Below, piece by piece: positions 4,498 to 13,524 of a DNA stretch of 64,000 nucleotides. The stretch comes from Pseudomonadales bacterium (GTDB lineage: Bacteria > Pseudomonadota > Gammaproteobacteria > Pseudomonadales > Azotimanducaceae), in contig JAYOYG010000002.1 of assembly GCA_038153445.1 (NCBI GenBank), positions 9,628 through 73,627 of the forward strand, in the 5' to 3' direction. Under the pieces are notes generated by a model. That model did no database searches and was not told the DNA's origin. It worked only from the letters and a program-made list of their open reading frames with translations. A program made the position numbers and the translations under genes. Positions within the stretch are counted from its first letter, which is position 1; each line of letters starts with the position of its first letter.

Positions 4498-6102
4498 CTA
4501 GGCAGCGGGTTCCCGGGCCGCCCCGGGGGCGCTGGCGCCGGGAGCGGCCTCAAGGTGGTTGTTGCCCCGAGCCGTGAGGTAGGCCGCCGCGAGCCGCTCT
4601 TCCCGACGCTTTTCCGTGATCGTTGCCATATGCCAGAACTCCCCCTGGAGCCGGTCCCGGGTGATGTCGAGCAGCACATAGCCCTTGTGGAAAAGGTCGA
4701 TAAACCGCATGTGGGGGTGGGCCTCAAGGCCCTGAGCTGCCCGCGCTTCCGCGGCCTTCCGATCCGTCAGGAAGGGCGAGGTGACCGAGGGGGTGACGAA
4801 TTCGACGGCGAGGCTGCCCTTGCCGGAGCTGGCGTTGTAGGCCGCGCCGAAGGGGTCCCGGGCGACGTCCATGGCCCAGGAGGAGTGAATATCCCCGGTG
4901 AGCACGGCGACGTTATCGATGCCCCCCTCCTCAAGGACGTCGAGGAGCCGGGTGCGGGCGTGGGGGTAACCGTCCCACTGGTCCGTGTTCAGAATGGGGG
5001 TGTCGTCGTAGCCCCCAAGCTGCCCCAGCATCACCTGTTGGCCGAGGATTCGCCAGCTTACCCCGTCCCCCTTGGAGCGTTGCAACTGATCGTAAAGCCA
5101 CGCTTCCTGGGTGGGGCCGAGGAGGCTGCGCTTGGGGTCCTGAATGACAGCGAGGTCCTTAGGATTGGCCGCCTCCCGATCCCGGCCGTAGAGACGGGTA
5201 TCTAACATGGTGAGATCGAGCAGGTCTCCAAAGCGGAAGCTGCGCCAAATTTGTGCGTCCCCGGGGCTTTGCGCTTCCCGGGTGGGCAGCCACTCGTGCC
5301 AGGCCTTCACCGCCGCCCCTTTCCGGGCCGCCCAAGCCCCTTCCCCCTCGTTGTGATTCTGCGCGCCATCGCGCCAACTGTTGTTAGCGGATTCGTGGTC
5401 ATCCCAAATCACGACCATGGGGTGCTGACGGTGCAGTTCTTGCAGATCCTCGTCCGTACGATAGAGCGCGTAGCGTTCCCGATAATCGGCAAGGGTGGTG
5501 ATCTCCCGGTCCGGCGCGTGGCGCCGGCCGAGGGCGGTCCCGTCGCCGTATTCGCCGTTGCCATACTCGTAGATGTAGTCGCCGAGGTGCAGCACGAGGT
5601 CGAGGTCGTTGCGCCGGGCCATGGCGCCATAGGCATTGAAGTAGCCAAAGAGCCAGTGCGAGCAGGAGGTATAGGCGATGCGCAGACGATCGACACCGGG
5701 GCCCGGGAGGGTGCGGGTGCGGCCCAGGGGGGACGCTTCCCCAGCAGCGATGAAGCGATAATAGTAGGTGCGCCCGGGCGTCAGGCCGTCGACAATAACC
5801 TTCACGGTGTAATCGCGGCCGCCATGGGTGCTGACTTCGCCGCGCTGAAGCGGCCGTCGACCTTGCGGATCAGCGTAGAGGGTCCAGCCGACCGTAAGGG
5901 GGGCGCCGTCCTGCTGCGGGGTGGCTCGGGTCCAGAGTACGATGCTGTCCTGGCTAGGGTCCCCGGAGGCGACGCCGTGGAGGAACACCTTGCGACCAGT
6001 GTCGGCGGTGCGCGGCGCCAACGGACTCGCGCAGGCGCCCAGGAGCGGCAGGGTCAGGCTAGCGGCGGAGCTGCGGAGTAGATGACGGCGGGTGACGGCC
6101 AT
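4498..6102 (-). CDS. phoD: Alkaline phosphatase D family (PhoD), Tat-exported, possible lipoprotein
   Basis: Tat motif TRRHLLRSS followed by LLGACA. PhoD metallophosphatase motifs HLGDYIYEYG and VIWDDHE. Start placed at the second ATG (6100-6102) because AAGGGAG precedes it; the first ATG at 6120 remains possible. Confidence 0.85.
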   Translation of the reverse strand: MAVTRRHLLRSSAASLTLPLLGACASPLAPRTADTGRKVFLHGVASGDPSQDSIVLWTRATPQQDGAPLTVGWTLYADPQGRRPLQRGEVSTHGGRDYTVKVIVDGLTPGRTYYYRFIAAGEASPLGRTRTLPGPGVDRLRIAYTSCSHWLFGYFNAYGAMARRNDLDLVLHLGDYIYEYGNGEYGDGTALGRRHAPDREITTLADYRERYALYRTDEDLQELHRQHPMVVIWDDHESANNSWRDGAQNHNEGEGAWAARKGAAVKAWHEWLPTREAQSPGDAQIWRSFRFGDLLDLTMLDTRLYGRDREAANPKDLAVIQDPKRSLLGPTQEAWLYDQLQRSKGDGVSWRILGQQVMLGQLGGYDDTPILNTDQWDGYPHARTRLLDVLEEGGIDNVAVLTGDIHSSWAMDVARDPFGAAYNASSGKGSLAVEFVTPSVTSPFLTDRKAAEARAAQGLEAHPHMRFIDLFHKGYVLLDITRDRLQGEFWHMATITEKRREERLAAAYLTARGNNHLEAAPGASAPGAAREPAA

Positions 6103-6175
6103 GGAGTGCACTCCCTTCATGGGGATCGGAAATCTTGGGTGAGACGAAGTATGCCGGGAAATTCCTGGGGCGTGG

Positions 6176-6193
6176 ATGACCGTCCCGTGACAG
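6176..6193 (-). promoter_or_regulatory. Candidate Pho box (PhoB binding site) upstream of phoD
   Basis: The minus strand reads CTGTCAC-GGGA-CGGTCAT. These are two 7-bp direct repeats, each 6/7 to the E. coli CTGTCAT consensus, with the canonical 4-bp spacer. It lies 55-73 nt upstream of the phoD start candidates, within the 101-bp divergent region shared with the ATP-grasp operon. Confidence 0.4.
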
Positions 6194-6221
6194 TACGGAG
6201 CGAGAAGGGGCCGGTGCGCGC

Positions 6222-8759
6222 ATGAACGCGCTCGATCGCCCGGGACCGAGCGTGCTCCACAGCGCCTATGGCGCGGAGATGGGCGCCTTTGACGAATTGC
6301 TTGGGGAGGACGGGGCGCCCCGGCCCCATTGGGCGCGACTGCTCCACGCCTTTGGACAGCTGGGGCCAGAGGACCTTGAACAGCGGCGCCGCGATGCCCG
6401 GCGACTGTTTAGGGAAAACGGCCTGACCTTCAGCGCGGGTCCGGGGGCGGCCAGCCGTCCCTATGATCTCGACCCCATTCCCCACCTTGTGCCGCCGGAC
6501 GCCTGGGCCGTGCTCGAAAGCGGCCTGCGGCAGCGTGCCCAGCTCCTCGATGCGGTGCTCCAGGACCTCTACGGCCCTCGCCATCTGCTGCGCCAGGGGG
6601 TGCTTCCTGCGGATCTTATTTACCGGCACCGGGGCTATCTTCAGGGCCTCGTAGGGGCTGGCGGCATGGAGCAGGCCCTGGCCTTCTACGGCGCTGATGT
6701 GGTGCGCCGGGGCGACGGATCCTTCGCCGTGCTGGGGGATCGTACCCAGGCGCCCGCAGGGGTGGGGCTCGCCCTGGAAACGCGTATTGTCACTTCGCGC
6801 ATCCTCCCGAACCTGATTCGGGCCAGCCATGTGCATCGCCTAGCCAGCTTCTTTGAACATCTTCGCGGCGCCGTGGTGGACCTGGCTCCGCATCAGCGGT
6901 TGCGTCCGCGCATTGCGGTGCTCGCCTCAGGAATTAGCGATCCCCACTATTTTGACCACGCGTACCTGGCGAGCTATCTCGGCTTTCCCTTGCTCCAGGC
7001 CGGGGATCTCACGGTTCGGGAGGGCCGGGTCTGGCTGCGCACTATCGGTGGGCTGAAGCTCCTCGATGTGGTGCTCCGTCGAACCGGTGATCACGACAGC
7101 GATGCCCTTCTCGTTCTCGATGGGGAAACGGGGGTTCCGGGGCTAGGGGAAGCGGCCCTTCGAGGGGAGGTGGCGCTAGCGAATGGGCTTGGGGTGTCGA
7201 TCCTTGAGCACCCAGGGCTTATGCCCTACCTGCCTCAGCTCGCTCGCCAGGTCCTTGGGGAAGATTTGAAGCTCCCGTCCGTGGAAACCTGGTGGTGCGG
7301 GAACGCCCAGGCGCGGCAGCACGTATTGGCGAACCTTGAATCGATGGTGATCAAGCCCATCGATCGCAGTGGACAAGCCCTCTGGGGCGGGGCCCTCTCC
7401 GCCGAGGCCCGGGATACCCTTCGGCGGCAAATTAAAGCGGACCCGGAGACCTTCGTGGGGCAGCCCGCGGCCTTGGAGGGGACGGCTGCGACCCTGGTGG
7501 ACGGGCAGCTTCGTCCCCAGGCCGTGCTCACTCGCTTCTTCGCCACCCGCCAGGGGCGGGACTTTGAGGTGATGACCGGCGGCTTTACCCGGGTGGCGGG
7601 GCCTCGGGGCGGGCCCCTGGCGCTGGGCAGCGAGCTCCGCGGCCTGTGTAAGGACACCTGGGTGCTGGCCGACGAGACGGAGCGTCATTTGATTCGCTGG
7701 CCCCGGGCCGTCCCAGAGGTGGGGCCGGGGGCTCCGGAGCAGCTTCCTAGCCGGGTCGCCGATAATTTGTATTGGGTAGGGCGCTATGCAGAGCGGGCCG
7801 AGGGGCTCGCGCGCATGGCCCGGGCCGTGCTGCGCCACGCCCGGGAGGTTCGGGATTACGGCGACCCTGCCGATGCCGTTGCCCTTGCGCGCCTCATCGA
7901 CGGCTTCTGCGCCCTCGCCGGGGTAGCCTCCGATAGCTTCCCCCACCGGGATGAGGTGCTGCTCACCCTCCTGCTTGATGAACAGCAACCGGGCAGCCTG
8001 CCCCAAACCCTTCAGCGCCTAGGGCAAGCGGCGGAGCAATTGAAGGACCGCTGGGCTCCGGACGCCAGCCGCGTGCTCGATGAGATTGGGCAGCGCCTCG
8101 CGCAAGCCCAGGGGCTGTCCCCCCAGGCCCTCGGAGCCGTCGAGGAGGCCCTCGATCCCTTGATTACGGCGCTTTTGACCTTCTCCGGGTTGAGCCTGGA
8201 GAGCATGACCCGGGAGCAGGGGTGGCGCTTTTTGATGATCGGGCGGCGCCTCGAACGGGCCCAGGGGACGGCCACGCTGCTGCTGGAAACCCTTGCCGAG
8301 GCCTCCGATAGTGCAGCGGAGCCTCTCCTTCTCGAGAGCTTGCTCCGGGCTCACGACAGCGTGATGACGCACCGGCGTCGCTATCGGGCGCTTCTTGATC
8401 CCGCCTCGTTCCTCGAGGTGCTTCTGCTCGATGAGCAAAACCCCCGGAGCGTGGCCTTCCAGCTCCTCGAGCTCGAAGCCCTGCTTCAAGCCTTGCCCCG
8501 GAGCGGCCCAGGCCTTGCCCCGGAGCAGCGGGCTCTTTTGGAGGTCCGCACCGCCCTGCGTCTTGCCGAAGCGGAGGCCCTGGCGGCTCAGCCCGTCACC
8601 GGTGGGTCCGAATCGCGGCAGCGGCGGGCCCTGCAAAGCCTGCTCTGGACCTTGCTCACGGGGCTTTCTCAAACCAGCAGCGCCTTGGACGATGCCTATT
8701 TCCTTCACCTGGAGGCCGCTCGACCCATGGCACTCCGGGGTCAGGGGGGCAGGGCATGA
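6222..8759 (+). CDS. Fusion protein: circularly permuted ATP-grasp (type 2) domain plus C-terminal alpha-E domain
   Basis: 845 aa. The N-terminal ~495 aa is collinear with the stand-alone ATP-grasp at 9660..11111 (shared motifs such as HYFDHAYLASYLG / AYFEHAYLAQQMG and GG.TRVA). From about nt 7745 the segment LPSRVADNLYWVGRYAERAE matches the start of the alpha-E protein at 11111 (LARVAENMYWMARYLERAE). Confidence 0.8.
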   Translation: MNALDRPGPSVLHSAYGAEMGAFDELLGEDGAPRPHWARLLHAFGQLGPEDLEQRRRDARRLFRENGLTFSAGPGAASRPYDLDPIPHLVPPDAWAVLESGLRQRAQLLDAVLQDLYGPRHLLRQGVLPADLIYRHRGYLQGLVGAGGMEQALAFYGADVVRRGDGSFAVLGDRTQAPAGVGLALETRIVTSRILPNLIRASHVHRLASFFEHLRGAVVDLAPHQRLRPRIAVLASGISDPHYFDHAYLASYLGFPLLQAGDLTVREGRVWLRTIGGLKLLDVVLRRTGDHDSDALLVLDGETGVPGLGEAALRGEVALANGLGVSILEHPGLMPYLPQLARQVLGEDLKLPSVETWWCGNAQARQHVLANLESMVIKPIDRSGQALWGGALSAEARDTLRRQIKADPETFVGQPAALEGTAATLVDGQLRPQAVLTRFFATRQGRDFEVMTGGFTRVAGPRGGPLALGSELRGLCKDTWVLADETERHLIRWPRAVPEVGPGAPEQLPSRVADNLYWVGRYAERAEGLARMARAVLRHAREVRDYGDPADAVALARLIDGFCALAGVASDSFPHRDEVLLTLLLDEQQPGSLPQTLQRLGQAAEQLKDRWAPDASRVLDEIGQRLAQAQGLSPQALGAVEEALDPLITALLTFSGLSLESMTREQGWRFLMIGRRLERAQGTATLLLETLAEASDSAAEPLLLESLLRAHDSVMTHRRRYRALLDPASFLEVLLLDEQNPRSVAFQLLELEALLQALPRSGPGLAPEQRALLEVRTALRLAEAEALAAQPVTGGSESRQRRALQSLLWTLLTGLSQTSSALDDAYFLHLEAARPMALRGQGGRA

Positions 8760-9679
8760 GGCTTCAGGTCCGCCATCGCACCACCTACCACTACAGCGAG
8801 CCGGTCACCCTGGGCCATACGGAGGCGCGGTTGACGCCCCCGGACCGGGGCCGGCAGCGCCGGCTCAGCTTCGATCTGCAGGTCACCCCGGCGCCCAAGG
8901 TGCTCCATAGCCGAGAGGATGCCTTTGGAAATGCAGTGACCCGCTTCTCCGTGGAAACGCCCCACGATCAGCTCGTGGTGGAGGCCCACTCGGTGCTGGA
9001 GATCGCCCCCGCGGAGGCGGAGCTGCCCCTAGCGGGGCCGCGCAGCGTCGCCGAGATGCAGGCGGCCTTTCAGGATCCGCAAACGGAGGCGCAGCGGCTC
9101 CATCGGCTCTTTTGCCTGCCCTCGGCCTACGTGCCCCAGCTCCCCGAGCTTCGTGCATACGGCTTAGAAAGCTTCCATCCCCAGCGCGATGTAGTGGCGG
9201 CCACGCAGGAGCTCATGGAGCGTATTTACGACGATTTCCACTACGACCCCACGGCGACGGAGGTCGCGACCCCCTTGCGCGAGGTGTTCGAGGGGCGTCG
9301 CGGCGTCTGCCAGGACTTTGCCCATTGTGCTCTCGGCGTGCTCCGAGCCCTGGGCCTGCCCGCGGCCTACTGCTCGGGCTATCTGGAAACGGATCCGCCG
9401 CCGGGGGGTGAAAAGCTGGTGGGCGCTGACGCGTCCCACGCCTGGTTTGCCCTTTACGTGCCTGAGCAGGGCTGGCTGGAATTCGACCCGACGAACCGTC
9501 AACGGCCGACGGAACGCTACGTGTTTCTGGGGCAGGGCCGGGATTACGGCGATGCGGCGCCGCTCCGCGGGATTGTGCAGGGGGGTGGCCATCACGAGGT
9601 TCAGGTGAGCGTCGACGTGCACACCCAGCCGCTAACGTCATCGATGGAGGAAGGCAGCCATGACCATCAACTGGGGTAG
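8756..9679 (+). CDS. Transglutaminase-like cysteine protease family protein (Bact_transglu_N plus transglutaminase core)
   Basis: 307 aa. ATGA overlap with the upstream gene. N-terminus MRLQVRHRTTYHYSEPV is typical of the bacterial transglutaminase N domain. Cys-His-Asp triad context is intact: GVCQDFAH (Cys codon 9308-9310), ASHAWF, FDPTN. Confidence 0.85.
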   Translation: MRLQVRHRTTYHYSEPVTLGHTEARLTPPDRGRQRRLSFDLQVTPAPKVLHSREDAFGNAVTRFSVETPHDQLVVEAHSVLEIAPAEAELPLAGPRSVAEMQAAFQDPQTEAQRLHRLFCLPSAYVPQLPELRAYGLESFHPQRDVVAATQELMERIYDDFHYDPTATEVATPLREVFEGRRGVCQDFAHCALGVLRALGLPAAYCSGYLETDPPPGGEKLVGADASHAWFALYVPEQGWLEFDPTNRQRPTERYVFLGQGRDYGDAAPLRGIVQGGGHHEVQVSVDVHTQPLTSSMEEGSHDHQLG

Positions 9680-11111
9680 CTACGCCCAGCCCGGGCTTTT
9701 CGATGAGTGGGTGACGGAGAAGGGTCGTCTGCGCGCCGGCTTCGGGCGGCTGGGTAAGCGCTTTGCCACCTATTCCATGGAGGCGCTCCAGGATCGTAGC
9801 GCCAACCTTGAGCGCGCCATCAAGGAGCAGGGGGTGACCTTTACGGTCTATTCCGAGGCCCACGGATCCATTGATCGCAGCTGGCCCCTGGATTTGATGC
9901 CCCGGATCCTTCGGCGCCAGGAATGGCTCACCATTGAAGCGGGCCTAGCGCAGCGGGTGAAGGCCCTCAATTGCCTCATCGATGATCTCTATCACGATCA
10001 GCGCTGCATCAAGGATGGGGTGTTGCCGGCTTTTCTTCTGGAAAACTCCGCCAATTTTCGTCCTCAGTGCGTGGGAGTAAATCCGCCCCTTGGGGTATGG
10101 GCCCACATCTGCGGGAGCGATCTGGTTCGCCACGAAGACGGGCAGATGTACGTCCTTGAGGACAACCTCCGAGTGCCCTCGGGCGTTTCCTACATGCTGG
10201 AAAACCGCGGCGTGATGAAGCGGACCTTCCCCGAGCTCTTTGCGAACTTTGCCATCGAGCCCGTGGACGCCTATCCCTCTCAGCTTTACGACACGCTTTG
10301 CGCGCTGGCGCCGCACCGGGCCCAGCCTGAAGTGGTGGTGCTCACCCCGGGGGTCTTTAACTCCGCCTACTTTGAGCACGCGTACCTCGCGCAACAGATG
10401 GGCTGCGAGCTGGTGGAGGGGCGGGATCTGGTGGTGAACAGCCAGGATGAGGTGTTCATGCTGACCACCCGGGGGCGGGCTCGGGTGGATGTGATCTACC
10501 GCCGGATCGATGATGCCTTCCTCGATCCCGAAGCCTTTAACAAGGATTCCCTCCTTGGCGTGCCCGGGCTCATGCGCGCCTGGAAGGCCGGGAAGGTGGC
10601 GCTCGCGAATGCCCCCGGGGCGGGCGTGGCTGATGACAAAGCGGTGTATTGCTTCGTGCCGGATCTCATCCGTTACTACCTCAGCGAAGCGCCCCTGCTG
10701 CCGAATGTGCCGAGCCACATCTGTGCGCGGAAGGAGGAGCGGGAGTACGTGCTTGACCACATTCATGAGCTGGTGGTGAAGCCGGTGAACGAGTCCGGGG
10801 GCTACGGCATGCTCCTGGGCCCCCAGGCCACCCCCAAGGCGCGGGAGGCCTTCCGTAAAAAGATTCAGCGTAATCCGCGAAACTACATGGCCCAGCCCAT
10901 GTTGAATCTGTCCACCGTTCCCACCTTCCTTGGCCAGGCGGTGGAGCCGCGGCACGTGGATCTGCGTCCCTTTATCCTGTCCGGAGAGTCCGTACAGGTC
11001 ACCACGGGAGGGCTCACGCGGGTGGCCATGCGCAAGGGCTCCCTGGTGGTGAACTCTTCCCAGGGGGGCGGCAGCAAGGACACCTGGGTGATCGACGAGG
11101 GGGGACGCTGA
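9660..11111 (+). CDS. Circularly permuted ATP-grasp type 2 protein
   Basis: 483 aa. GGAGGAAGG lies upstream of the ATG, and the start overlaps the upstream stop by 20 nt. The sequence is typical of the DUF404/DUF407-type family that precedes alpha-E proteins. Confidence 0.85.
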   Translation: MTINWGSYAQPGLFDEWVTEKGRLRAGFGRLGKRFATYSMEALQDRSANLERAIKEQGVTFTVYSEAHGSIDRSWPLDLMPRILRRQEWLTIEAGLAQRVKALNCLIDDLYHDQRCIKDGVLPAFLLENSANFRPQCVGVNPPLGVWAHICGSDLVRHEDGQMYVLEDNLRVPSGVSYMLENRGVMKRTFPELFANFAIEPVDAYPSQLYDTLCALAPHRAQPEVVVLTPGVFNSAYFEHAYLAQQMGCELVEGRDLVVNSQDEVFMLTTRGRARVDVIYRRIDDAFLDPEAFNKDSLLGVPGLMRAWKAGKVALANAPGAGVADDKAVYCFVPDLIRYYLSEAPLLPNVPSHICARKEEREYVLDHIHELVVKPVNESGGYGMLLGPQATPKAREAFRKKIQRNPRNYMAQPMLNLSTVPTFLGQAVEPRHVDLRPFILSGESVQVTTGGLTRVAMRKGSLVVNSSQGGGSKDTWVIDEGGR

Positions 11112-12070
11112 TGCTCGCGCGGGTTGCGGAAAATATGTATTGGATGGCGCGCTACCTCGAGCGCGCCGAGGATCTCGCGCGTCTGATCGACGTGACGACG
11201 CACCTCCACCTCGATTTGCCCCGGGGCAGCACGCCCAGCTGGGGAACGCTGCTGACGCTTATCGGGGCAGAGGAAAGCTACCGGGAAAAGCATGGTACGG
11301 CGGAGGACGAAGGGCGAGTGCTGCGCTTTCTGCTTGGGGATAAGGACCACCCTCAGTCTCTGCGGGCCGCCATCGCTGCGGCTCGGTCGAACGCCCGGGG
11401 CTTCCGAGAAGTCTTTCCCCGGGAAGCCTGGGAAGACATTAATGGCCTCTACCACTTTAGTCAGGAGCAGCTGAAGAGCGGCCTGAGTAAGCGGGGCCGC
11501 CATACCTACCTCCGGGGAATTATCACGCGGGTGCAAACGGTGGTGGGGCGCCTCGAAGGGGCCATGAACCGCGATGAGGCTTACTACTTTATCGAACTTG
11601 GGCGCCAGCTTGAGCGCGCCGACATGACCACCCGGCTGATTGACAGCAGCAGCGCGCGCCTCGTCCCCCAGGAGGGCAGCAATGGGGCACGCTTCGACGA
11701 TTTACAGTGGATGAGTGTGCTGAAAAGCCTCACCGGGTATCAGATGTATCGCCTGGAGATGCAGCGGGCCATTCGCTCTGAGTCTGTGCTGGCGTTTCTT
11801 TTTCAGTCCTCGCGCTTTCCTCGATCCGTGGCCGGCGCCCTGCTGGCGCTTCGCCGCAGCCTCGAAGCGCTGGATCCAGAAGCCACCCTGCCTCGGCGCC
11901 TTCCCCAGGTGCTACGCCAGGTGAGCCAGCTTGAGCCCGAGGGGTTGGCTGGGGAGAAGCTTCACGCCCTGATTGATGAACTGCAGCAGGGCTTTGCGGA
12001 TATTCATGGCCAGCTCGAGCGTCGCTATTTCCGCCCCTCCCGGAGCGCGGACCCGGAAGCGGGGAGCTAG
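11111..12070 (+). CDS. Alpha-E domain protein (DUF403 family)
   Basis: 319 aa. TGATG overlap with the upstream ATP-grasp gene. N-terminal MLARVAENMYWMARYLERAEDLARL is the family signature. Confidence 0.85.
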   Translation: MLARVAENMYWMARYLERAEDLARLIDVTTHLHLDLPRGSTPSWGTLLTLIGAEESYREKHGTAEDEGRVLRFLLGDKDHPQSLRAAIAAARSNARGFREVFPREAWEDINGLYHFSQEQLKSGLSKRGRHTYLRGIITRVQTVVGRLEGAMNRDEAYYFIELGRQLERADMTTRLIDSSSARLVPQEGSNGARFDDLQWMSVLKSLTGYQMYRLEMQRAIRSESVLAFLFQSSRFPRSVAGALLALRRSLEALDPEATLPRRLPQVLRQVSQLEPEGLAGEKLHALIDELQQGFADIHGQLERRYFRPSRSADPEAGS

Positions 12071-13524
12071 CCCCGCCAAAAGCTGGGGGTGAGGAGCACC
12101 ATCACGGTCATGATCTCGAGGCGCCCGAGGAGCATGCCGAGGGTTAGAAGACCCTTGGCAGCGTCCGGCAGCGTTGAGAAATTTCCGGAGGGGCCGATGG
12201 TGCTGCCGAGCCCCGGGCCCACGTTGGCCACGGCGGTGGCCGCGCCGGAAAGGGCCGTGAGGAAGTCGAGGCCCAGGGCCGAGAGGGCGAGGGCGATGAC
12301 GCCAATGGTGGCCATGAAGAAGAAGGCAAAGCCCGTCACGGAATGAAGGACCTCCTCCGGCACCCGACGCCCGTTGAAGCGCACGGGGAAGAGCCCTCGG
12401 GGATGGACAAGGCGCTTTAGCTGGTTGGTCAGTACGGCGAAGCCCAGCTGGAGGCGGAACACCTTCATGCTGCCGCTTGTGGAGCCGGAGCAGGCGCCGA
12501 TGAAGAGGGCAAAGAAAAACAGCATCACCGCCGTTTGGCCCCAGCTGTTGTAGTCGCTAACGGCGTAGCCCGTGGTGGTCAGAATCGAAACCGTGTTGAA
12601 GAAAATCCAAAGCCAGCTGCTGTCCGCACTCGGCCCGCCGCCCACCTTTAGCAGCAGGACGAAAGCCCCGTAAAACAGGAGGACGAGCAGGAAGAAGGTG
12701 CGCACCTGCTGGTCCCGAACGAGATTCCGCAGGGCGGAGCGCACGCCTCGGAGGTAGAGGGAGAAGGGAAGCGCCGAGGCCAGCATGAAGACGCAGGCGG
12801 TCAGCAGAAGGGCCGGTTGCTTCCCGAAGGCGCCGAAGGACGCGTCGTAGTTGGCGAAGCCTCCGGTGGCGACCGTGGTCATGCCATGGCATAGGGCATC
12901 AAAAGGCGCCATGCCAAAGAGGGCGTAGGTGCCCACGCAAAGCGCGGTCATGCCCAGGTAGACGAGGCCAATGCCCCCGGCCATGCGATTGGTGCGGGGC
13001 AGGGCCTTATCGGACCAGTCCGAAGATTCGGTCTGGAAGAGGCGCATGCCCCCCACCCGGAGGAAGGGGAGGATGGCGATGCCGATGACGATGATCCCCA
13101 CCCCCCCTAACCATTGGAGCATGGCGCGCCAGAGCTTGAGGCTTCGAGGCAGGGCTTCGAGGTGGGTAATGATGGTGGATCCGGTCGTGGTGATCCCCGA
13201 GGCCGCTTCAAAAATGGCGTTCACCGCGCCCAGCTCTGGGCGCCCAAGGTAGAAGGGTAGGGCGGCAAAAAGGGCCAGGGCCGTCCAGGTGCTGGTGGTG
13301 GCCAGAAAAAGGCTTTGGGGCTTTAAGCGGAAATCCTGCCGGAGACCAGGGAGAAAGAGGATCAGCCCCGCGCCCAGGGTGATCGCTGCGGCCTGCCCCA
13401 GGGCAGCGGTGTGCCCGTCTCCGTCGAAGTAGGAGAGGAGCACGGGCGGCATCATTAGCAGCGCCAGCAGGCACAGGAGCGCTCCGCTGAGGAAGAGCGC
13501 AGGCGAATAGGGGCGTCTGGGCAA
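12067..13524 (-). CDS. trkH: Trk-type K+ uptake transporter subunit TrkH
   Basis: Polytopic membrane protein with repeated pore-loop-like segments (ITTTGSTII, TTVATGGFAN, TTTGYAV, GPGLGS). The listed ORF runs to 13794, but its first ~90 aa are non-membrane junk overlapping the divergent channel gene. I propose a TTG start at 13522-13524 preceded by GAGGG. The start is uncertain (13524-13614). Confidence 0.8.
   Translation of the reverse strand: MPRRPYSPALFLSGALLCLLALLMMPPVLLSYFDGDGHTAALGQAAAITLGAGLILFLPGLRQDFRLKPQSLFLATTSTWTALALFAALPFYLGRPELGAVNAIFEAASGITTTGSTIITHLEALPRSLKLWRAMLQWLGGVGIIVIGIAILPFLRVGGMRLFQTESSDWSDKALPRTNRMAGGIGLVYLGMTALCVGTYALFGMAPFDALCHGMTTVATGGFANYDASFGAFGKQPALLLTACVFMLASALPFSLYLRGVRSALRNLVRDQQVRTFFLLVLLFYGAFVLLLKVGGGPSADSSWLWIFFNTVSILTTTGYAVSDYNSWGQTAVMLFFFALFIGACSGSTSGSMKVFRLQLGFAVLTNQLKRLVHPRGLFPVRFNGRRVPEEVLHSVTGFAFFFMATIGVIALALSALGLDFLTALSGAATAVANVGPGLGSTIGPSGNFSTLPDAAKGLLTLGMLLGRLEIMTVMVLLTPSFWRG

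Follow-up and report, generated by a model that had tools for sequence, protein, structure and literature searches.

A reduced, four-gene form of the permuted ATP-grasp/Alpha-E/transglutaminase system with a probable pseudo-ligase in a marine gammaproteobacterial lineage

Introduction

The 64,000-nucleotide stretch of DNA analysed here (the window) comes from a bacterium of the Pseudomonadales (positions 9,628 to 73,627 of the forward strand of contig JAYOYG010000002.1, assembly GCA_038153445.1) and carries, at window positions 6222 to 12070, four genes of the permuted ATP-grasp/Alpha-E/transglutaminase system (COG2308/COG2307/COG1305). This system, reportedly proposed by Iyer, Abhiman, Burroughs and Aravind in 2009, ranks among the most widely distributed sets of enzymes without a known reaction, and occurs in Mycobacterium tuberculosis too. 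We describe the locus as a real four-gene operon (predicted) of a very common bacterial enzyme set and as an ordinary member, in a reduced form, of the known system, in which one of the two ATP-grasp copies is probably a dead enzyme. What is distinctive here is in every case modest, namely the loss of a gene encoding a DUF2126 protein, a very tight packing of the genes and a Pho-box context without a sigma-54 site. An original prediction, made from the DNA letters alone, had assigned the module to the peptide-ligase system of Iyer and Aravind, an attribution that holds (published prediction, PMC3495828, PMC6376114). It had also stated that substrate and product are still unknown, and our literature search agrees, as it found no published reaction for orthologues.

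Gene content and organization of the locus

All four genes lie on the plus strand. Gene 1 (6222-8759) encodes an 845-amino-acid permuted-ATP-grasp::Alpha-E fusion with degenerate catalytic residues, a probable pseudo-ligase, and is followed by gene 2 (8756-9679), which encodes a transglutaminase-like thiol enzyme of 307 amino acids with Cys185, His228 and Asp244. Gene 3 (9660-11111) specifies a circularly permuted ATP-grasp carboxylate-amine ligase of the COG2308 type (483 amino acids), whose catalytic residues appear intact, and gene 4 (11111-12070) the 319-amino-acid Alpha-E partner protein of this ligase. The earlier description of a four-gene ATP-grasp/Alpha-E/transglutaminase module with an intact Cys-His-Asp context was borne out by the list of open reading frames, by Pfam and by a check of the triad. 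A genome-wide domain search identified this locus as the sole one in the host genome with these domains. As had been predicted, no Anbu-type (proteasome-like) gene accompanies it: a search of the whole host genome (79% complete) for Anbu/Proteasome (PF00227) gave no match at E <= 1, and the operon has no space for an Anbu gene.

The overlaps reported to link the genes can all be read in the sequence. Genes 1 and 2 share an ATGA (8756-8759), genes 2 and 3 overlap by 20 nt (9660-9679), and genes 3 and 4 are joined by a TGATG (11109-11113), where the start of gene 4 overlaps the stop of gene 3. The 20-nt overlap is considered real, because the start of gene 3 at 9660 fits the N-terminus of the split ATP-grasp family, in which M1, W5 and Y8 are invariant.

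The same four-gene arrangement was found in four related assemblies, at 91-98% protein identity, with trkH downstream in 4/4 and phoD upstream in 3/4, that is, wherever the contig extends so far. An assembly artefact as the source of the arrangement is ruled out by this recurrence. The host assembly itself measures 2.0 Mb, and the close relatives of the host include Candidatus Salivita marina (Candidatus Azotimanducaceae, Pseudomonadales).

The flanking genes are unrelated to the system: phoD (minus strand) diverges 101 bp upstream, and trkH is convergent downstream. The 101 bp that separate phoD from the operon (6121-6221, assigned to neither strand) form a divergent control region, which contains a Pho-box-like element that is described below. 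At the distal end, the stop of the Alpha-E gene overlaps that of trkH at 12067-12070 (CTAG), and there is therefore no space for a terminator.

Domain assignments and predicted structures

The ATP-grasp, Alpha-E and transglutaminase domains proposed from the sequence were confirmed by profile searches, in which all four proteins were assigned by Pfam. Gene 1 contains CP_ATPgrasp_2 at residues 87-459 (E 1e-118, 396.8 bits) and Alpha-E at residues 508-827 (E 2e-69, 234.7 bits), gene 2 Bact_transglu_N and Transglut_core, gene 3 CP_ATPgrasp_2 (E 2e-165, 550.6 bits) and gene 4 Alpha-E (E 6e-82, 276 bits), the Pfam gathering cut-off for CP_ATPgrasp being 32 bits. The triad of gene 2 (Cys185, His228, Asp244) is invariant in 54/54 surveyed small transglutaminases, and the relatives of gene 2 in the PDB are 6G49 and 3ISR. 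Scans of the four proteins against NCBIfam and PADLOC returned no match, and consequently they have no curated name and no tie to known defence systems.

Gene 3 matches PDB entry 3N6X over its full length (E 1.5e-156). The predicted structure of gene 1 (predicted local distance difference test, pLDDT, 83; predicted template modelling score, pTM, 0.79) has a disordered linker at residues 489-504, and in a fold search the modelled N-terminal half found 3N6X as its best match (template modelling score, TM, 0.84). Further fold matches of this half were eukaryotic glutathione synthetases, the glutathionylspermidine synthetase/amidase Gss, YgiC and trypanothione synthetase, the similarity to the Gss family having E-values of 1e-5 to 1e-6. 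The model of gene 4 is all-helical (pLDDT 93.6, pTM 0.91). A fold search of the PDB with this Alpha-E model gave no structural neighbour (best E 0.4, TM below 0.3) and a sequence search no solved relative; Alpha-E yields no functional hint because it has no structural neighbour. Three observations, namely the natural fusion in gene 1, the overlap of stop and start codons between genes 3 and 4, and the pTM of 0.79 for the model with both domains, suggest that ATP-grasp and Alpha-E act as one unit.

Fused and split copies differ at the catalytic residues

The ATP-grasp parts of genes 1 and 3 are 33% identical (E 4e-73) and the Alpha-E parts of genes 1 and 4 are 28% identical (E 3e-14). The fused and split copies had been described as clear paralogues with parallel motifs at equivalent positions; the paralogy stands at these identities, but the parallelism fails at the catalytic motifs. 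A recent duplication is ruled out by the same two values together with the class-wide differences given below. As far as their sequences tell, the two copies are ancient paralogues that belong to two old classes and are not equivalent units. In an unrooted FastTree phylogeny of ATP-grasp domains the fused proteins, a class with over 3300 homologues, form one clade. Homologues in other gamma- and betaproteobacterial groups are ~67% identical for the split protein and ~41% for the fused one, and the fused class, when relatives from similar groups are compared, appears to evolve much faster than the split class.

The split family is characterised by the invariant motifs G-S-D154-L-V-R157, V-L-E167-D-N169, D-D-K327 and V-V-K374-P-x-x-E-S-G-G-Y-G and by Q412, with D154, E167, N169, K327, K374 and the ESGGYGM loop kept in 23/23 and 22/22 split sequences. 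In 56 diverse fused proteins, the position of E167 holds a glutamate in 2/56, that of N169 is never an asparagine (arginine in 46 and histidine in 9), that of K327 is never a lysine and that of K374 is a lysine in 12/56, and the Gly-rich loop is gone; the catalytic residues are likewise lost in 60 closer fused homologues. In gene 1 itself the E-x-N motif has become G172-D-R174 and the K327 equivalent is Pro331, with the second lysine (K378), Q414, R438 and a KDTW motif retained in this lineage. The Alpha-E half of the fused protein has kept both ER motifs, but of the residues that never vary in the split proteins it has lost N94, R96, D171, R175 and D178; this half too appears to be degenerate.

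The split residues D154, E167, N169, K327 and K374 align with D318, E330, N332, K498 and K533 of Escherichia coli Gss, whose sequence reads G-R316-M-D318 ... E330-Y-N332 ... N-K498 ... V-K533-P. This mapping was obtained by a permissive local hhalign alignment that is colinear over 349 columns and matches the residues, with a score that is not significant (P 0.18). We take R316-x-D318, E330-x-N332, K498 and K533 of Gss to be the Mg-ATP and acyl-phosphate residues of the 2006 structure. According to Pfam, CP_ATPgrasp_1 comprises active as well as inactive versions. Taken on its residues, gene 3 is the predicted sole competent ATP-dependent carboxylate-amine ligase of the operon, and gene 1 looks like a conserved pseudo-ligase that has kept the fold and lost the Mg-ATP chemistry, probably a dead enzyme.

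These residues bear directly on the possibility that both ATP-grasp/Alpha-E units are active ligases adding two successive residues to a product that the transglutaminase then trims or matures. For both copies the Pfam scores greatly exceed the thresholds and the fold is that of ATP-grasp, and the fused copy of this lineage keeps K378, Q414, R438 and the KDTW motif. The asparagine of the E-x-N motif is absent in 56/56 fused proteins, its glutamate in 54/56 and the first lysine in 56/56, the Gly-rich loop is gone, and the fused class is the faster-evolving one (~41% vs ~67% identity), which together make a pair of working ligases highly improbable. A two-step ligation by two ligase/Alpha-E units, as originally suggested, is unlikely because the fused class, without E-x-N, first ATP lysine and Gly-rich loop, would be a conserved pseudo-ligase.

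Distribution of the system and loss of the DUF2126 gene

In a sample of 401 Pseudomonadota genomes, Alpha-E was present in 205/401 and the fused class in approximately one quarter. A second ATP-grasp match was present in every sampled genome whose best match was a full-length fused protein, and many sampled genomes contain the split type without the fused class, a distribution suggesting that the fused class depends on the presence of the split ligase. The control, E. coli, has no Alpha-E and no permuted ATP-grasp of this type, and the system is absent from it.

Gene neighbourhoods were surveyed at 60 loci around fused genes, on which four protein types were mapped. A small transglutaminase follows the fused gene in 59/60 of these loci, and in 54/60 the fused gene is adjoined, mostly directly upstream, by a gene for a protein of ~1100 amino acids. 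In the three examples checked, the latter consists of Bact_transglu_N, Transglut_core and DUF2126, annotated as 'putative amidoligase'; it corresponds to the Rv2566 family that Iyer et al. described in 2008 (PMC2588565). A split ATP-grasp/Alpha-E pair lies at most 8.5 kb from the fused gene in 24/60 loci, in all orientations, five of the 24 having been chosen as already known to be linked. The order fused gene, transglutaminase, split pair does recur, headed by DUF2126 in two sampled genomes (L043, L088) and in two metagenome relatives (L098, L099), and without DUF2126 in the four related assemblies. Other orders were seen as well: L048 (G301:C1:2462600-2482000) is a six-gene run of ATP-grasp, Alpha-E, small transglutaminase, DUF2126, fusion and small transglutaminase, and L089 (G202:C6:617400-636700) represents a second form without DUF2126, in which ATP-grasp and Alpha-E precede fusion and transglutaminase.

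L098 and L099, which at 52-54% identity come closest outside the lineage, have at the same site a divergent phoD and then DUF2126, fusion, transglutaminase, ATP-grasp and Alpha-E. Their neighbourhoods (L098:1-18978 and L099:1-20646) are syntenic with the window at ~50-75% protein identity, and the adjacency of phoD is therefore older than the DUF2126 loss. The syntenic series in L098 comprises a class V aminotransferase, PhoD, the operon, a K+ channel and aconitase. A search for DUF2126 (PF09899) gave no match in the host genome nor in the four related genomes, and phoD, 101 bp upstream of gene 1, stands where the DUF2126 gene would be. Judged by these gene orders, the four-gene operon is a five-gene operon minus its first gene, which encoded the transglutaminase-DUF2126 ligase and has been lost in a lineage represented by five genomes. 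An assembly error behind the missing gene is ruled out, the same junction being present in three other assemblies. The original prediction had seen two ligase/Alpha-E units flanking one thiol peptidase. As a design this did not hold: the operon was not built as two units around a peptidase, since the relatives have the DUF2126-headed five-gene order, of which the present arrangement would be a remnant.

The upstream region and regulation

Both strands of the 64-kb window were scanned for two CTGTCAT repeats spaced by 4 nt. Just one site, CTGTCACGGGACGGTCAT at 6176-6193 on the minus strand, reached a match of 12/14; this Pho-box-like element lies 29 nt ahead of the start codon of gene 1. It faces phoD and is conserved in the four related assemblies, with two changes in L003, where it reads CTGTCACGGGGCTGTCAT and matches at 13/14. 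In L004 (positions 60-135) unrelated sequence precedes the element in place of the phoD side of the other genomes, with a break at GGGCGTGGATGACC; this break sits at a contig end and may reflect either a rearrangement or an artefact of assembly. In a scan for sigma-54 sites (GG-N10-GC, TGGCAC-N5-TTGCW), the best match ahead of the gene 1 ATG was 7/12, an 8/12 match lying inside coding sequence, and no sigma-54 site was found upstream in L098 and L099. Good sigma-54-like sites do occur upstream of the DUF2126 genes in some surveyed loci. A sigma-70 promoter and terminator scan of positions 5900-12400 found none on the plus strand.

Published expression data from other organisms connect the system with nitrogen. 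The cluster I35_5080-5083 of Burkholderia cenocepacia H111 shows NtrC/sigma-54-dependent induction under nitrogen limitation (PMC5491218), PP_2685 and PP_2688 of Pseudomonas putida are induced on nitrate vs ammonium (PMC8050072), and in marine metagenomes the abundance of the system tracks urea-metabolism domains (PMC3597751). Together with the sigma-54-like sites just mentioned and the Pho-box-like site of the window, these data favour a role in nutrient scavenging, in which a nitrogen compound would be activated (for example by gamma-glutamylation in a Puu-like manner) and then cleaved to release ammonia or an amine, here possibly under the control of phosphate limitation. However, these arguments are all regulatory in kind, neither this locus nor its nearest relatives have a sigma-54 site, the Pho-box faces phoD, and a conserved pseudo-enzyme would be odd in a simple catabolic route; we consider nutrient scavenging unlikely as the function of the operon.

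A more far-reaching and decidedly doubtful proposal is that the marine lineage has retained the functional core only, namely the ligase with its Alpha-E protein and a pseudo-ligase::Alpha-E 'reader' with a thiol 'eraser', and has exchanged nitrogen (sigma-54) control for control by phosphate starvation, exerted at the Pho-box that phoD and the operon share. If this were true, the DUF2126 ligase and Anbu would be accessories. What the split ligase makes would be the direct target of the pseudo-ligase/transglutaminase pair, and the system would serve in nutrient starvation generally. The Pho-box context puts phosphate limitation among the conditions of interest.

A proposed make-and-break cycle

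The reading that we favour, and hold to be moderately probable, is that two standard modules lie head to tail in this operon, a writer (genes 3 and 4) and a processing module (genes 1 and 2), which would together carry out a make-and-break cycle, the DUF2126 gene having been lost. In the writer module the gene 3 ligase would work with its Alpha-E partner, gene 4, and the two proteins would, as a first step, make an amide or isopeptide bond via an acyl-phosphate. In a second step, genes 1 and 2 would bind the product of genes 3 and 4 and then hydrolyse or transfer it, with gene 1 providing recognition or a scaffold for the Cys-His-Asp transglutaminase-like enzyme; these are the roles that we infer for the two proteins. 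Such a cycle would resemble that of the synthetase and amidase halves of Gss, the closest analogue studied, which form and cleave one and the same amide. The DUF2126 protein echoes this layout, with a thiol domain fused to a ligase. Of the alternatives raised originally, the ligation-trimming cycle is plausible in this framework.

As to the kind of substrate, we give a slight preference to a small conjugate of a peptide or amine over a protein tag, since every structural relative of the ligase that has been characterised forms small amides of thiol-peptides or polyamines. Protein tagging in the sense of Iyer and Aravind would have the split ligase mark proteins with an amino acid or a peptide in the manner of TTL or RimK, the transglutaminase remove the tag and the pseudo-ligase read it. 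This is the published prediction (PMC3495828, PMC6376114); in other genomes the proteasome-like Anbu is added to the system, large helical partners would suit protein-protein recognition, and transglutaminase-like folds act on proteins. Against it stand the small products of the characterised structural relatives, the fact that no Pup-like small open reading frame accompanies the system (PMC2588565) and that the operon is without spare coding space, the lack of Anbu here and the circumstance that a tagged protein was never reported. On balance protein tagging is possible, though rather less than probable.

Several points weigh against the writer-and-processing cycle that we prefer. The reader or scaffold role of gene 1 is purely what we infer, and Anbu and peptidase partners in other genomes favour a protein tag over a small molecule. 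The fused domain may have a non-canonical active site, given that K378, Q414 and R438 are still kept here, and the mapping of the putative catalytic residues onto Gss rests on motifs and a non-significant colinear alignment. Finally, the host genome is only 79% complete, with four related genomes in agreement that DUF2126 is absent.

This copy does not reveal the chemistry of the system, but it indicates where to look. Work on the enzyme is best directed at the split gene; the fused gene is a candidate binding partner rather than a ligase to assay. With the DUF2126 gene lost, the pseudo-ligase/transglutaminase pair has been kept with the split ligase alone, which offers a minimal set of four genes that could be reconstituted in E. 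coli.

Comparison with known systems

Biochemical information on members of the system is sparse. In M. tuberculosis, Rv2569c is presumably the small transglutaminase of the Rv2566/Rv2567 cluster. It was reported in 2024 to be secreted, to show proteolysis in vitro and to cleave E-cadherin, and was called a serine protease on inhibitor data alone (PMC11081392); this label conflicts with the chemistry expected of its conserved cysteine-protease domain (PMC11081392). The protease report does not explain a conserved cytoplasmic operon. Rv2411c and Rv2567 of the same organism were expressed and no GABA-trehalose was made (2026 preprint); we dropped this preprint as a source of function, its result being that of a negative control only. 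The split ATP-grasp orthologue of Yersinia bercovieri releases phosphate from ATP (PMC6376114).

The B. cenocepacia H111 cluster I35_5080-5083 (DUF404/407, DUF403, transglutaminase and large transglutaminase) groups the same protein families as the present locus, but differs in its NtrC/sigma-54 dependence and in its large transglutaminase, neither of which is seen here. The Anbu-operon system (Valas and Bourne 2008; P. putida PP_2685-2688; Y. bercovieri, PMC6376114) similarly has a ligase/Alpha-E pair and a Cys-His-Asp transglutaminase gene in an operon. Differently from that system, the window has neither Anbu nor a sigma-54 promoter that could be found, and its transglutaminase gene lies upstream of the ligase, in the module of the fused gene, whereas there it lies downstream. 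Genes 1 and 2 correspond, as a fusion plus a small transglutaminase, to the DUF2126 module of the M. tuberculosis Rv2566/Rv2567/Rv2569c type (PMC2588565), from which the locus differs in that the defining DUF2126 ligase gene is absent here and in the four related genomes.

The closest structure is PDB 3N6X (Mfla_0391 of Methylobacillus flagellatus, 'putative glutathionylspermidine synthase'), which is both a relative of gene 3 and the best fold match of the N-terminal half of gene 1. It is a structural-genomics entry without an assigned reaction, and gene 1 shares only 30% identity with it and has not retained its catalytic residues. More distantly, Gss of E. coli and the peptide-spermidine ligases YgiC and YjfC share the permuted ATP-grasp fold, and the R-x-D, E-x-N, K and K-P motifs follow one another in the same order. 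No significant sequence match to this family was obtained, as a profile hmmsearch of the PDB found only 3N6X and hhalign comparisons with Gss alone and with a Gss/YgiC/YjfC alignment were not significant (probabilities <1%). The likeness to Gss extends to the logic of a ligase paired with a papain-fold thiol amidase; in Gss the thiol enzyme is a fused CHAP domain, whereas here it is a separate transglutaminase-like protein, and Alpha-E and a pseudo-ligase have been added to the pair.

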